Source: a virus
Lineage: Duplodnaviria; Heunggongvirae; Uroviricota; Caudoviricetes
Length of the DNA stretch: 19,675 bases
Reading direction: 5' to 3' (one strand)
IMG/VR virus record: IMGVR_UViG_2706794670_000001
Position numbers and translations under genes: made by a program. Positions 1,894 to 19,675 of the stretch are shown one piece after another (the stretch's first letter is position 1; the number at the start of each line of letters is the position of its first letter). The notes beneath the pieces are model-generated. The model searched no databases. It had not been told where the DNA came from and was given only the letters and a program-made list of their open reading frames with translations.

Positions 1894-5595
<3,702 letters not shown>

Positions 5596-9154: not shown

Positions 9155-9586
9155 ATGGCCATAAAAGGTCTTGAGCAGGCCGTTGAAAACCTCAGCCGTA
9201 TCAGCAAAACGGCGGTGCCCGGTGCCGCCGCAATGGCCATTAACCGCGTTGCTTCATCCGCGANNNNNNNNNNNNNNNNNNNNNNNNNNNNNNNNNNNNN
9301 NNNNNNNNNNNNNNNNNNNNNNNNNNNNNNNNNNNNNNNNNNNNNNNNNNNNNNNNNNNNNNNNNNNNNNNNNNNNNNNNNNNNNNNNNNNNNNNNNNNN
9401 NNNNNNNNNNNNNNNNNNNNNNNNNNNNNNNNNNNNNNNNNNNNNNNNNNNNNNNNNNNNNNNNNNNNNNNNNNNNNNNNNNNNNNNNNNNNNNNNNNNN
9501 NNNNNNNNNNNNNNNNNNNNNNNNGTCTTCCGAAAGAGCTGGGCTATGCGCTGCAGCATCAACTGAGAATGGTAATAAAGCGATGA
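9155..9586 (+). CDS. Z: tail completion protein gpZ (spans N-run 9264-9524; true length unknown)
   Basis: N-terminus MAIKGLEQAVENLSRISKTAVPGAAAMAINRVASSA and C-terminus [19 protein letters not shown] flank the N-run in one frame. The stop overlaps the U start (ATGA). Confidence 0.85.
   Translation: MAIKGLEQAVENLSRISKTAVPGAAAMAINRVASSAXXXXXXXXXXXXXXXXXXXXXXXXXXXXXXXXXXXXXXXXXXXXXXXXXXXXXXXXXXXXXXXXXXXXXXXXXXXXXXXXXXXXXXXXLPKELGYALQHQLRMVIKR
9264..9524. other. run of N (261 nt) inside Z
   Basis: Directly visible in the sequence. Confidence 1.
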
Positions 9587-11580: not shown

Positions 11581-14095
11581 ACCGGTAGGCGATCTGGTCG
11601 TTGATTTGAGTCTGGATGCGGCCAGATTTGACGAGCAGATGGCCAGAGTCAGGCGTCATTTTTCCGGTACGGAAAGTGATGCGAAAAAAACAGCGGCNNN
11701 NNNNNNNNNNNNNNNNNNNNNNNNNNNNNNNNNNNNNNNNNNNNNNNNNNNNNNNNNNNNNNNNNNNNNNNNNNNNNNNNNNNNNNNNNNNNNNNNNNNN
11801 NNNNNNNNNNNNNNNNNNNNNNNNNNNNNNNNNNNNNNNNNNNNNNNNNNNNNNNNNNNNNNNNNNNNNNNNNNNNNNNNNNNNNNNNNNNNNNNNNNNN
11901 NNNNNNNNNNNNNNNNNNNNNNNNNNNNNNNNNNNNNNNNNNNNNNNNCACCTCGCTGGCGGTGGCGACCGGTGCGCTGGCGTATGCCTGGTATCAGGGC
12001 AACTCAACCCTGTCCGATTTCAACAAAACGCTGGTCCTTTCCGGTAATCAGGCGGGACTGACGGCAGATCGTATGCTGGTCCTGTCCAGAGCCGGGCAGG
12101 CGGCAGGGCTGACGTTTAACCAGACCAGCGAGTCACTCAGCGCACTGGTTAAGGCGGGGGTAAGCGGTGAGGCTCAGATTGCGTCCATCAGCCAGAGTGT
12201 GGCGCGTTTCTCCTATGCATCCGGCGTGGAGGTGGACAAGGTCGCTGAAGCCTTCGGGAAGCTGACCACAGACCCGACGTCGGGGCTGACGGCGATGGCA
12301 CGCCAGTTCCATAACGTGACGGCGGAGCAGATTGCGTATGTTGCTCAGTTGCAGCGTTCCGGCGATGAAGCCGGGGCATTGCAGGCGGCGAACGAGGCCG
12401 CAACGAAAGGGTTTGATGACCAGACCCGCCGCCTGAAAGAGAACATGGGCACGCTGGAGACCTGGGCAGACAGGACTGCACGTGCATTCAAATCCATGTG
12501 GGATGCGGTGCTGGATATTGGTCGTCCTGATACCGCGCAGGAGATGCTGATTAAGGCAGAGGCTGCGTTTAAGAAAGCAGACGACATCTGGAATCTGCGC
12601 AAGGATGATTATTTCGTTAACGATGAAGCACGGGCGCGTTACTGGGATGATCGTGAAAAAAAACGCCTGGAGCGGGATGCAGCCCAAAAGAGGGTAGATC
12701 AACAGCGTCAACAGGACAAAAATGCGCAGCAGCAGAGCGATACCGAAGCGTCACGGCTGAAATATACCGAAGAGGCGCAGAAGGCTTACGAACGGCTGCA
12801 GACGCCGCTGGAGAAATATACCGCCCGTCAGGAAGAACTGAACAAGGCACTGAAAGACGGAAAAATCCTGCAGGCAGATTACAACACGCTGATGGCGGCG
12901 GCGAAAAAGGATTATGAAGCGACGCTGAAAAAGCCGAAACAGTCCGGCGTGAAGGTGTATGCGGGCGATCGTCAGGAAGACAGTGCTCATGCGGCCCTGC
13001 TGACGCTTCAGGCAGAACTCCGGACGCTGGAGAAGCATGCCGGAGCGAATGAGAAAATCAGCCAGCAGCGCCGGGATTTGTGGAAGGCAGAAAGTCAGTT
13101 CGCGGTACTGGAGGAGGCGGCACAACGTCGCCAGCTGTCCGCACAGGAGAAATCCCTGCTGGCGCATAAAGACGAGACGCTGGAGTACAAACGCCAGCTG
13201 GCTGCACTTGGTGACAAGGTTACGTATCAGGAGCACCTGAATGCGCTGGCGCAGCAGGCGGATAAATTCGCACAGCAGCAACGGGCAAAACGGGCAGCCA
13301 TTGATGCGAAAAACCGGGGGCTGACTGACCGGCAGGCAGCGCGGGAAGCCACGGAACAGCGCCTGAAGGAACAGTATGGCGATAATCCTCTGGCGCTGAA
13401 TAACGTCATGTCAGAGCAGAAAAAGACCTGGGCGGCTGAAGACCAGCTTCGCGGGAGCTGGATGGCAGGCCTGAAGTCCGGCTGGAGTGAGTGGGAAGAG
13501 AGCGCCACGGACAGTATGTCACAGGTTAAAAGTGCAGCCACGCAGACCTTTGATGGTATTGCACAGAATATGGCGGCGATGCTGACCGGCANNNNNNNNN
13601 NNNNNNNNNNNNNNNNNNNNNNNNNNNNNNNNNNNNNNNNNNNNNNNNNNNNNNNNNNNNNNNNNNNNNNNNNNNNNNNNNNNNNNNNNNNNNNNNNNNN
13701 NNNNNNNNNNNNNNNNNNNNNNNNNNNNNNNNNNNNNNNNNNNNNNNNNNNNNNNNNNNNNNNNNNNNNNNNNNNNNNNNNNNNNNNNNNNNNNNNNNNN
13801 NNNNNNNNNNNNNNNNNNNNNNNNNNNNNNNNNNNNNNNNNATCTCTACCGGCTGATGCGCGGCTATGCGGAAGGTGGTTATGTGGGCGGTGCCGGAAGT
13901 CCGGCGCAGATGCGGCGGGCTGAAGGCATTAATTTTAATCAGAACAATCACGTGGTGATTCAGAACGACGGTACGAATGGTCTGCCAGGTCCACAGATGA
14001 TGAAGGCCGTGTATGACATGGCCCGCAAGGGTGCCCGTGATGAAATTCAGACACAGATGCGTGATGGTGGCCTGTTCTCCGGAGGTGGACGATGA
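11573..14095 (+). CDS. H: tail tape measure protein gpH (spans N-runs 11698-11948 and 13592-13841; apparent frame changes at both)
   Basis: N-terminus MAEPVGDLVVDLSLDAARFDEQMARVRRHFSGTESDAKKTA, a long middle segment TSLAVATGALAYAWYQGNSTLSDFNKTLVLSGNQAGL...AQNMAAMLTG, and C-terminus NLYRLMRGYAEGGYVGG...MRDGGLFSGGGR. The three segments are in different frames relative to one another across the N-runs. Stop TGA at 14093-14095 overlaps the M start. Confidence 0.9.
11698..11948. other. run of N (251 nt) inside H
   Basis: Directly visible in the sequence. Confidence 1.
13592..13841. other. run of N (250 nt) inside H
   Basis: Directly visible in the sequence. Confidence 1.
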
Positions 14096-15020: not shown

Positions 15021-15279
15021 NNNNNNNNNNNNNNNNNNNNNNNNNNNNNNNNNNNNNNNNNNNNNNNNNNNNNNNNNNNNNNNNNNNNNNNNNNNNNNNN
15101 NNNNNNNNNNNNNNNNNNNNNNNNNNNNNNNNNNNNNNNNNNNNNNNNNNNNNNNNNNNNNNNNNNNNNNNNNNNNNNNNNNNNNNNNNNNNNNNNNNNN
15201 NNNNNNNNNNNNNNNNNNNNNNNNNNNNNNNNNNNNNNNNNNNNNNNNNNNNNNNNNNNNNNNNNNNNNNNNNNNNNNN
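15021..15279. other. run of N (259 nt) covering the L/K junction
   Basis: Directly visible in the sequence. Confidence 1.
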
Positions 15280-15897
15280 CCGGAGGCGTATTTCCGTATG
15301 TCGCCGGAAGACTGGCTGCAGGCAGAGATGCAGGGTGAGATTGTGGCACTGGTCCACAGCCACCCCGGTGGTCTGCCCTGGCTGAGTGAGGCCGACCGGC
15401 GGCTGCAGGTGCAGAGTGATTTGCCGTGGTGGCTGGTCTGCCGGGGGGCGATTCACAAGTTCCGCTGTGTGCCACATCTTACCGGGCGGCGCTTTGAGCA
15501 CGGGGTGACGGACTGTTACACGCTGTTCCGGGATGCTTACCATCTGGCGGGGATTGAGATGCCGGATTTTCATCGTGAGGATGACTGGTGGCGTCACGGT
15601 CAGAATCTCTATCTGGATAATCTGGAGGCCACAGGGCTGTATCAGGTGCCGTTGTCAGCGGCGCAGCCGGGCGATGTGCTGCTGTGCTGTTTTGGTTCAT
15701 CGGTGCCGAATCATGCCGCCATTTACTGTGGTGACGGCGAGCTGCTGCACCATATTCCTGAACAACTGAGCAAACGAGAGAGGTATACCGACAAATGGCA
15801 GCGACGCACACACTCCCTCTGGCGTCACCGGGCATGGCACGCATCTGCCTTTACGGGGATTTGCAACGATTTGGCCGCCGCATCGACCTTCGTGTGA
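15280..15897 (+). CDS. K: tail assembly protein gpK (5' end hidden in N-run)
   Basis: Visible from PEAYFRMSPEDWLQAEMQGEIVALVHSHPGGLPWLSEADRR... to ...ASAFTGICNDLAAASTFV. The HSHPGG motif fits the JAB/MPN-type domain known for lambda K. Stop TGA at 15895-15897. Confidence 0.88.
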   Translation, partial: PEAYFRMSPEDWLQAEMQGEIVALVHSHPGGLPWLSEADRRLQVQSDLPWWLVCRGAIHKFRCVPHLTGRRFEHGVTDCYTLFRDAYHLAGIEMPDFHREDDWWRHGQNLYLDNLEATGLYQVPLSAAQPGDVLLCCFGSSVPNHAAIYCGDGELLHHIPEQLSKRERYTDKWQRRTHSLWRHRAWHASAFTGICNDLAAASTFV

Positions 15898-16466
15898 AAA
15901 CGGGTGCCGAAGCCATCCGGGCGATGGCCACACAGCTCCCTGCGTTTCGTCAGAAGCTGAGCGACGGCTGGTATCAGGTGCGTATTGCCGGGCAGGATGT
16001 TAGCACGTCCGGATTAACGGCACAGTTACATGAGGCTCTGCCTGACGGCGCTGTGATTCATATTGTTCCCAGAGTCGCCGGGGCCAAGTCAGGTGGTGTA
16101 TTCCAGATTGTCCTGGGAGCAGCCGCCATTGCCGGATCATTCTTTACCGCCGGAGCCACCCTTGCAGCATGGGGGGCTGCCATTGGTGCCGGTGGTATGA
16201 CCGGCATTCTGTTTTCTCTCGGTGCCAGTATGGTGCTCGGCGGTGTGGCTCAGATGCTGGCACCGAAAGCCAGAACTCCCCGCACACAGACAACGGATAA
16301 CGGTAAGCAGAACACCTATTTCTCCTCACTGGATAACATGGTTGCCCAGGGCAATGTTATGCCTGTTCTGTATGGTGAAATGCGCGTGGGGTCACGTGTG
16401 GTATCTCAGGAGATCAGCACGGCAGACGAAGGGGACGGTGGTCAGGTTGTGGTGATTGGTCGCTGA
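15795..16466 (+). CDS. I: tail assembly protein gpI
   Basis: MAATHTLPLASPGMARICLYGDLQRFGRRIDLRVKTGAEAIRAMATQLPAFRQKL... of 223 aa. Starts inside the 3' end of K in another frame, as in lambda. Confidence 0.9.
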   Translation: MAATHTLPLASPGMARICLYGDLQRFGRRIDLRVKTGAEAIRAMATQLPAFRQKLSDGWYQVRIAGQDVSTSGLTAQLHEALPDGAVIHIVPRVAGAKSGGVFQIVLGAAAIAGSFFTAGATLAAWGAAIGAGGMTGILFSLGASMVLGGVAQMLAPKARTPRTQTTDNGKQNTYFSSLDNMVAQGNVMPVLYGEMRVGSRVVSQEISTADEGDGGQVVVIGR

Positions 16467-16526
16467 TGCAAAATGTTTTATGTGAAATCGCCTCCGGGCG
16501 GTTTTATCGTTTATGGAGCATGACGA

Positions 16527-19500
16527 ATGGGTAAAGGCAGCAGTAAGGGGCATACCCCGCGCGAAGCGAAGGACAACCTGAAGTCCACGCAGCTGCTGAG
16601 TGTGATCGATGCCATCAGCGAAGGGCCGGTTGAAGGTCCGGTGGATGGATTAAAAAGCGTGCTGCTGAACAGTACGCCGGTGCTGGACAGTGAGGGGAAT
16701 ACCAACATCTCCGGCGTCACGGTGGTGTTCCGGGCAGGTGAGCAGGAGCAGTCACCGCCGGAGGGATTTGAATCCTCCGGCTCCGAGACGGTGCTGGGTA
16801 CGGAAGTGAAATATGACACGCCGATCACCCGGACCATCACGTCGGCAAACATTGACCGACTGCGTTTTACCTTCGGTGTACAGGCACTGGTGGAAACCAC
16901 CTCAAAGGGAGACAGGAATCCGTCTGAAGTTCGCCTGCTGGTTCAGATACAGCGTAACGGTGGCTGGGTGACGGAAAAAGACATCACCATTAAGGGCAAA
17001 ACCACCTCGCAGTATCTGGCCTCGGTGGTGGTGGATAACCTGCCGCCGCGCCCGTTTAATATCCGGATGCGCAGAATGACGCCGGACAGCACCACAGACC
17101 AGCTGCAGAACAAAACGCTCTGGTCGTCATACACCGAAATCATCGATGTGAAACAGTGCTACCCGAACACGGCACTGGTCGGCGTACAGGTGGATTCGGA
17201 GCAGTTCGGCAGCCAGCAGGTGAGCCGTAATTATCATCTTCGCGGGCGCATTCTGCAGGTGCCGTCGAACTATAATCCGCAGACGCGGCAATACAGCGGT
17301 ATCTGGGACGGAACGTTAAAACCGGCATACAGCAACAACATGGCCTGGTGTCTGTGGGATATGCTGACCCATCCGCGCTATGGCATGGGGAAACGTCTTG
17401 GTGCGGCAGATGTGGATAAATGGGCGCTGTATGTCATCGGCCAGTACTGTGACCAGTCGGTGCCGGACGGCTTTGGCAGCACGGAGCCGCGCATCACCTG
17501 TAATGCCTGGCTGACCACACAGCGCAAGGCGTGGGATGTGCTCAGTGATTTCTGCTCGGCGATGCGCTGTATGCCGGTATGGAACGGGCAGACGCTGACG
17601 TTCGTGCAGGACCGACAGTCGGATAAGGTGTGGGCCTATAACCGCAGTAATGTGGTGATGCCGGATGATGGCGCGCCGTTCCGCTACAGTTTCAGCGCCC
17701 TGAAAGACCGCCATAATGCCGTTGAGGTGAACTGGATTGACCCGGATAACGGCTGGGAGACGGCGACAGAGCTTGTGGAGGATACGCAGGCCATTGTCCG
17801 TTACGGTCGTAACGTCACGAAGATGGATGCCTTTGGCTGTACCAGCCGGGGGCAGGCACACCGCGCCGGGCTGTGGCTGATTAAAACGGAACTGCTGGAG
17901 ACGCAGACCGTGGATTTCAGCGTGGGTGCTGAAGGGCTTCGTCATGTACCGGGCGATGTCATTGAAATCTGCGATGATGACTATGCCGGTATCCGCACCG
18001 GCGGGCGCGTGCTGGCGGTGAACAGCCAGACCCGGACGCTGACGCTCGACCGTGAAATCACGCTGCCATCCTCCGGCACCACGCTGATAAGCCTGGTTGA
18101 CGGGCAGGGGAATCCGGTCAGCGTGGAGGTCCAGTCCGTCACCGACGGCGTGAAGGTAAAAGTGAGCCGTGTTCCTGACGGTGTTGCTGAATACAGCGTG
18201 TGGGGGCTGAAGCTGCCGACGCTGCACCAGCGATTGTTCCGCTGCGNNNNNNNNNNNNNNNNNNNNNNNNNNNNNNNNNNNNNNNNNNNNNNNNNNNNNN
18301 NNNNNNNNNNNNNNNNNNNNNNNNNNNNNNNNNNNNNNNNNNNNNNNNNNNNNNNNNNNNNNNNNNNNNNNNNNNNNNNNNNNNNNNNNNNNNNNNNNNN
18401 NNNNNNNNNNNNNNNNNNNNNNNNNNNNNNNNNNNNNNNNNNNNNNNNNNNNNNNNNNNNNNNNNNNNNNNNNNNNNNNNNNNNNNNNNNNNNNNNGCTG
18501 ACAGTCCGGGCAGTAAATGCGTGGGGGCAGCAGGGCGATCCGGCGTCGGTATCGTTCCGGATTGCCGCACCGGCAGCGCTGTCGCGGATTGAGCTGACGC
18601 CGGGCTATTTTCAGATAACCGCCACGCCGCATCTTGCGGTTTATGATCCGACGGTACAGTTTGAGTTCTGGTTCTCGGAAAAGCGGATTGCGGATATCAG
18701 GCAGGTTGAAACCACAGCACGCTATCTTGGCACGGCGCTGTACTGGATAGCCGCCAGTATCAATATCAAACCGGGCCATGATTATTACTTTTATATCCGC
18801 AGTGTGAACACCGTTGGCAAATCGGCATTCGTGGAGGCTGTTGGTCAGCCGAGTGATGATGCATCCGGTTATCTGGATTTTTTCAAAGGCGAGATAGGGA
18901 AAACCCATCTGGCTCAGGAGCTGTGGACGCAGATTGATAACGGTCAGCTTGCGCCTGACCTGGCTGAAATCAGGACGTCCATTACGGATGTCAGCAATGA
19001 AATCACGCAGACCGTCAATAAGAAACTGGAAGACCAGAGTGCGGCAATTCAGCAGATACAGAAGGTTCAGGTTGATACAAATAATAACCTGAACAGCATG
19101 TGGGCTGTGAAGCTGCAGCAGATGCAGGACGGACGCCTTTATATCGCGGGTATTGGTGCCGGTATTGAGAACACCCCTGACGGCATGCAGAGTCAGGTGC
19201 TGCTGGCGGCGGACAGGATTGCGATGGTTAATCCTGCGAATGGCAACACAAAACCGATGTTTGTTGGTCAGGGCGATCAGATATTCATGAACGACGTGTT
19301 CCTGAAACGCCTGACGGCCCCCACCATTACCAGCGGTGGAAATCCATCGGCATTTTCCCTGACTCCGGACGGAAAGCTGACCGCTAAAAATGCGGATATC
19401 AGTGGCAGTGTGAATGCGAACGCCGGGACGCTCAACAATGTCACGGTAAATGAAAACTGTACGATTAAGGGCATGCTGGAGGCGACTCAGGTCAGAGGTG

Positions 19501-19675
19501 ACTTCGTTAAAGCTGTATCCAAATCATTTCCGAAACAGGCTGGTACGTGGGGTAACACGGAAACACCAAACGGGACGGTTACAGTCACCATAAGCGATGA
19601 TCATAACTTTGACCGCCAGATTATTATTCCGCCCATTATTTTTAACGGTATAGCGTATGACGATCCGGGGAGCGG
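16527..19675 (+). CDS. J: tail tip / central tail fibre protein gpJ, 3'-partial (spans N-run 18247-18496; continues beyond window)
   Basis: ATG at 16527 with GGAG 7 nt upstream. Translation [34 protein letters not shown]... stays open in frame to the last base of the window, and the frame is continuous across the N-run. The N-terminal ~570 codons are near-identical to lambda J as recalled. Confidence 0.93.
18247..18496. other. run of N (250 nt) inside J
   Basis: Directly visible in the sequence. Confidence 1.

Follow-up and report, generated by a model that had tools for sequence, protein, structure and literature searches.

The distal part of gene J in this lambda-like prophage is very probably a recombinant that joins a shaft and upper fibre of the phage 21 type to an end of the phage 434 type, and the tip that it encodes would most likely dock on OmpC rather than on LamB. 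Gene J, which codes for the tip attachment protein or central tail fibre, was identified by translation and by alignment to lambda J. It runs from 16527 to 19675 on the + strand of the window (the whole stretch of 19,675 nucleotides analysed here) and is cut by the window end, such that 1049 codons are visible, including 84 codons of N mask. Taken as a whole, the stretch represents the arm of a lambda-like prophage that carries the structural genes. It follows lambda collinearly from nt 13 (cos/nu1) to nt 18474, through J, with 92-98% DNA identity up to the mosaic region. Gene order is that of lambda, with J directly 3′ of M, L, K and I, the last of which occupies 15795-16466. The alignment to lambda begins only at window nt 1171. 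The stretch 5′ of cos/nu1, which has no counterpart at the lambda left end, carries two minus-strand open reading frames: 258-683 encodes a DUF1398 protein (PF07166, E = 3e-43) and 726-959 a DUF3950 protein (PF13132, E = 2e-20).

Six N masks of 250-266 bases interrupt the window (3152-3417, 9264-9524, 11698-11948, 13592-13841, 15021-15279 and 18247-18496). Their lambda counterparts measure, in the same order, 245, 408, 249, 291, 230 and 346 nt, and none of the six lengths agrees. Because mask lengths are not preserved, reading frames and apparent gene lengths across the masks are unreliable. The mask inside J (18247..18496, in the FNIII-1 or Ig_J region) is a data artefact in which 250 N replace 346 nt. 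The J frame is kept across it only by coincidence, and because the 96 absent nucleotides make the mask too short, window codon numbers 3′ of it run 32 below the true J numbering. The possibility that 32 codons have truly been deleted from the J FNIII region was considered and rejected, as an identical contig has 346 nt at this place and the mask lengths are arbitrary. This contig (L013) came from a look-up with the window's gpI protein for public contigs that carry the same prophage. It is 100% identical to the window over 15280-18246 and 18497-19675, which takes in all of the visible J, and its J is a full-length protein of 1165 residues. The final 116 codons of J, which lie beyond the window, were taken from this contig and not from the window itself.

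In some hosts, copies of this prophage are undergoing decay. The complete chromosome CP022459.1 carries the same prophage with a one-base deletion at J nt 2093, which leads to a stop at codon 722, and the lom gene just 3′ of J in contig L013 (12231-12880 of that contig) ends in a premature stop.

Global alignment to lambda J (NC_001416) yields near-identity up to the motif FFKG, with codon 789, at nt 18891, as the first to diverge. An earlier note on this DNA, made from the letters alone, had described J as near-identical to lambda up to about 18890 and strongly divergent from 18891, and the alignment bears this out to the nucleotide: identity is 95-97% through codon 788 and about 24% thereafter, and the region is not identical to lambda. 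When segment identities are computed on the 100%-identical full-length copy of J, the values relative to lambda are 97% for the hub, 95% for FNIII-2, 24% for the shaft, 59% for the upper fibre, 96% for a conserved block, 48% for the start of the specificity region and 30% for the last 84 residues, which lie off the window. The conserved block is the lambda-like sequence that the note had seen return, from a 15-residue string through to SVNAN; it is real, and spans 19278-19430 with 90-98% DNA identity to lambda. A second divergent stretch, also anticipated, follows at 19431-19675, and DNA identity to lambda stands at 40-75% there (the same range holds over 19428-19667). All peptide strings that had been quoted are present in the translation. 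The divergent region had further been called AT-richer, which holds but is a modest effect, with 48.6% G+C in the shaft (18891-19106) and 46.9% in 19431-19675 versus 58.6% in the hub part of J.

The blocks were defined from an alignment of ten J proteins (lambda, 21, 434, cdtI, phi458, mEp332, WGPS6, Chlobot and two E. coli prophages), with identity along J followed in codon-aware sliding windows. FNIII-2 (Pfam Ig_J_second; 18582..18884, + strand, converted from the Pfam residues) has 92-100% nucleotide identity to all references. It is the last segment common to lambda, 21 and 434, and the divergence sets in two to three codons after its end. The next block (18891..19277, +) is of the phage 21 type, with 95-100% nucleotide identity to 21, Chlobot, phi458, cdtI, mEp332 and WGPS6 versus 10-73% to lambda and 434. 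At the protein level, the shaft is 99-100% identical to those of 21 and Chlobot and 24-25% identical to those of lambda and 434. The conserved lower fibre (19278..19430, +), which forms the end of the Pfam Phage_Tail_Tip match, is common to all J types and is as close to 434 as to lambda, at 90-98% nucleotide identity. Finally, the start of a 434-type receptor-specificity region (19431..19675, +) has 83-100% nucleotide identity to 434, mEp332 and WGPS6, versus 35-70% to 21. The last 168 residues of the full J extend this pattern: 158 of the 168 are identical to 434 J and ten differ (94%; 92-96% by segment), versus 37-49% identity to 21 and 30-48% to lambda. Thus, the block-wise replacement in distal J that had been proposed from the sequence is supported by sharp-edged blocks that are 95-100% identical to alleles of other phages.

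The switch between the two types of sequence is abrupt. The earlier note had called for an alignment with breakpoint analysis, and these resolve a mosaic of 21-type and 434-type blocks. Specifically, the maximum chi-square over sites informative for 21 versus 434 is 257.5, a value reached by none of 2000 permutations, and places the switch at 19275-19295. To the left of this point 217 of 232 informative sites are of the 21 type and 15 of the 434 type; to the right, 118 are of the 434 type and 11 of the 21 type. Among sites that distinguish 434 from lambda, 98 of 104 carry the 434 state. With closer proxies for the parents, namely Chlobot for the left-hand side and E. coli 4/1-1 for the right-hand side, a run of 223 consecutive Chlobot-type sites ends at 19365 and 4/1-1-type sites begin at 19403, from which point to the end of J 243 of 247 sites are of the right-hand type. 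A single crossover at 19366-19402 between a Chlobot- or 21-like J and a 434-like J is sufficient, judged by these sites, for the pattern seen in distal J. Two crossovers that flank the conserved block are unnecessary, as the better proxies fit with one at that position. The boundary at 18891 is where the two allele classes part; 5′ of it all references are alike and do not tell the parents apart. Fine structure exists within the 434 class as well: the last 70 nt of the window are 100% identical to 434, mEp332 and WGPS6 and 88-92% identical to phi458, cdtI and the MB51 prophage, a pattern that reads as a small patch exchange inside that class.

Could such divergence have arisen in place, through rapid accumulation of point mutations and small indels, driven by diversifying selection for host recognition and with no recombination? 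The specificity region of J is fast-evolving and an indel hotspot (PMC6646904), and a few discordant sites do occur inside the blocks. This origin is nevertheless highly improbable. The blocks are 95-100% identical at the DNA level to alleles in phages that are otherwise distinct (for one block 21 and Chlobot, for the other 434 and E. coli 4/1-1), their edges are sharp, with informative sites in agreement over runs of 223 and 243, and among the loci compared the shaft occurs in just two lengths without intermediates.

An assembly chimera, in which reads from two prophage J genes were joined across the conserved block, would produce a similar picture. Several J copies are commonly present per E. 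coli genome (median 2, up to 13 matching places), and the switch sits in a conserved stretch of the kind where short-read assemblers can cross over. We consider this source more remote still than divergence in place, given that the same architecture is found in the isolated and sequenced phages phi458, cdtI and mEp332 and in complete chromosomes such as that of MB51, and that three independent assemblies, including CP022459.1, match the window at 99.9-100% over the junction.

The preferred reading, a recombinant J, can be set against the domain structure of the protein. A Pfam run on the 100%-identical full-length J found all six gpJ families above their cut-offs, in the order FNIII-A, Phage-tail_3 hub, two Ig/FNIII domains, tail-tip fibre and Ig-like receptor-binding domain. 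In the distal half, Ig_J_second (FNIII-2) covers J residues 718-818, no Pfam family covers 819-871, Phage_Tail_Tip covers 872-1000 and Ig_GpJ_C, the receptor-binding domain, covers 1029-1164. In lambda J, FNIII-2 is followed by an alpha-helical shaft, which partly refolds upon receptor binding, then by a beta-sheet prism fibre and an Ig-like receptor-binding domain (Ge and Wang 2024, PMC11101478). With the Pfam coordinates laid over this scheme, the first divergent block corresponds to the shaft and the top of the prism, and the conserved block corresponds to the lower prism. Lambda residues 960-1132 constitute the J specificity region (PMC6646904), to which the second divergent block therefore corresponds, and both edges with lambda-like sequence coincide with domain ends.

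This placement changes how two statements of the earlier note are to be read. The note had taken the divergence as a route to altered receptor specificity, which suits the second block; the first and larger one is not a receptor determinant and instead comprises the shaft together with the uppermost beta-prism fibre. It had also put the receptor-binding domain beyond the window, which is wrong: the specificity region begins at about nt 19392 and Ig_GpJ_C at about 19515, both inside the window, whose end cuts Ig_GpJ_C at residue 53 of approximately 136. The part of the specificity region within the window suffices to identify it as the 434 type.

For the receptor, the most informative comparison is between lambda and 434. 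Exchange of lambda J for 434 J changes the receptor from LamB to OmpC, and dependence on OmpC is known for both phage 434 and lambda h434 (PMC3509688, PMC11101478). The J proteins of lambda and 434 are distinguished by 125 positions: 106 lie at or after residue 970 and 19 before it. Since these differences fall almost entirely after residue 970 and 434 J confers use of OmpC, we infer from sequence that OmpC is the most likely receptor here, rather than LamB. An end of the lambda type that binds LamB would be expected to have high identity to lambda residues 960-1132, and the values found are 48% where the region begins and 30% across the final 84 residues. The suggestion in the earlier note that this phage may not use LamB in the way lambda does is supported, with a specificity region of the phage 434 (OmpC) type and not of the lambda (LamB) type. 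In addition, published work shows that this region recombines separately from the rest of J (PMC6646904).

The mosaic might be real and the receptor still be LamB, or another porin such as OmpF, if the 434-like end has acquired another specificity. Few substitutions are needed to change the porin used: a single mutation enables phage 21, a native LamB user, to use OmpC (PMC11336670), and four enable lambda to use OmpF (PMC6646904). The ten residues at which the last 168 depart from 434 might therefore be of consequence, and phage 21 itself combines the same long shaft with use of LamB. We regard this outcome as unlikely, since over those 168 residues the protein is 94% identical to 434 versus 30-48% to lambda and 37-49% to 21, and since the difference in receptor between lambda and 434 maps to this region (PMC3509688). 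Literature searches found no receptor information for phi458 or mEp332, and no structure of a 434-type receptor-binding domain was found among the PDB entries searched. The OmpC-dependent phage phi330, a relative of WGPS6, was examined as possible support and rejected, as its receptor domain is only 35-40% identical to that of 434 and hence represents another allele.

With OmpC as the favoured receptor, the recombinant protein could work as follows. We infer from the 95-97% identity to the lambda hub and FNIII domains that J would trimerise to seal the tail tip and would open once the receptor is bound. The segment from FFKG to about 19365 supplies a phage 21-type long alpha-helical shaft and upper fibre, and the segment from about 19403 to the end of J a phage 434-type specificity region and receptor-binding domain. 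The switch between them lies in a stretch of fibre conserved across all J types, where homology is available for a single crossover. The trimeric tip would dock on the OmpC porin, and the binding signal would travel up the beta-prism fibre into the helical shaft. The shaft would then unfold and let the tail tip open, as described for lambda.

The shaft itself comes in two length classes. The putative alpha-helical shaft of this J (approximately 18879-19112, +) spans 74 residues from FFKG to WAVK, versus 46 in lambda and 434, a net gain of 28 residues, and with this spacing and 99% identity to 21 it belongs to the long, 21-type class. Among 40 loci only these two lengths were found, 46 residues (lambda and 434 type) and 74 residues (21 type), with no intermediates. 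The difference of 28 residues equals four heptads, and the two classes are 24% identical to each other, whereas each is almost invariant in E. coli, E. ruysiae, E. albertii and Shigella. The extra 28 residues may be helical, and the stretch may form a three-helix bundle of the kind seen in the lambda shaft. A crude script counted six of six hydrophobic residues at heptad a and d positions around a 21-residue stretch of the insert, and a single-sequence AlphaFold model of 18750-19673 contains one long helix, at low confidence (mean pLDDT 39, and only 65-77 in the helix centre).

Shafts and receptor ends occur in several combinations: short with lambda ends, short with 434 ends, long with 434 ends and long with 21 ends. 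E. ruysiae has a further type of receptor end, carried on a long shaft. Because long-shaft 21 and short-shaft lambda both use LamB and short-shaft 434 uses OmpC, the shaft is not the receptor determinant. It assorts independently of receptor type and would hence behave as a generic module for transmission and spacing. We speculate, with little confidence, that the shaft dimorphism is a functional polymorphism kept by selection independently of the porin bound. If true, a longer shaft could alter stand-off distance or trigger threshold, for example on wild hosts that bear O antigen. Unexplained indel peaks have been reported 5′ of the specificity region (Maddamsetti et al. 2018). PDB entries 9wca and 9wcb (‘A8 gpJ 713’) contain a J fragment in which a lambda-type short shaft is joined to an end that resembles that of phage 21; this fragment may be natural or engineered.

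The frequency of each block was estimated in complete E. coli genomes (n = 5426), with a genome counted when a match spanned at least 80% of the query. The long shaft block is present in 3559 of these genomes, the lambda-type shaft block in 2637 and the 434-type specificity start in 2099. Matches to the lambda receptor end are confined to about 96-98 of the 5426, and all of them are at least 99% identical; those named among the matches come from laboratory strains. Lambda is the unusual J, and the alleles found in this J are common natural forms in E. coli. The receptor end of lambda itself is nearly absent from natural E. coli genomes, whereas shafts of the 21 type and ends of the 434 type are common. 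A scan of public genome contigs for further J variants gave no 100% match and returned relatives from Escherichia, Shigella and Citrobacter.

Two kinds of database entry from outside this group deserve comment. Lambda-type J contigs occur in assemblies of unrelated bacteria (Neobacillus, Leeuwenhoekiella, Pseudomonas, Shewanella, Bradyrhizobium, Desulfosporosinus and others; L026-L035, L037, L039 and L042 in our set). Wherever J is complete, its receptor end is 99-100% identical to that of lambda; several of the contigs are approximately 48.4-48.5 kb long with low coverage, and they look like contamination with laboratory lambda DNA. A contig of 1350 nt that is 99% identical to the J region (L016, JAGZNZ010000056.1) has been binned in a Collinsella metagenome-assembled genome, and is almost certainly a mis-binned fragment of an Escherichia prophage.

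The J protein described here is an ordinary, already sequenced allele composed of phage 21 and phage 434 modules. Its architecture is common and already in GenBank, and the specificity region of J has already been reported to undergo modular exchange (PMC6646904). What the analysis provides for this prophage is a concrete, testable receptor prediction, OmpC rather than LamB, which carries little weight beyond annotation.

Among known systems, phage 434 J (the OmpC-binding h434 host-range allele) has the same specificity region and receptor-binding domain as this protein. It differs in its short, lambda-type shaft, which is 25% identical to the one here, and in its total length, 1137 residues versus 1165. 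Phage 21 J offers the complementary likeness, with the same long shaft and upper fibre (99% and 96% amino acid identity, respectively), but its receptor end is of another type, and 21 also diverges inside the conserved block from about 19295. Lambda J (8IYK, 8XCK, 8XCJ) shares the gene position, the domain order, the hub and FNIII domains and the lower fibre, whereas its shaft is shorter by the four heptads and its receptor end is distinct. The full architecture of long shaft and 434-type end in 1165 residues recurs in phi458, cdtI and mEp332 and in the prophage of E. coli MB51, whose J genes, at 94.5-98.9% DNA identity over 18497-19675, differ from the J of this prophage only on a fine scale.
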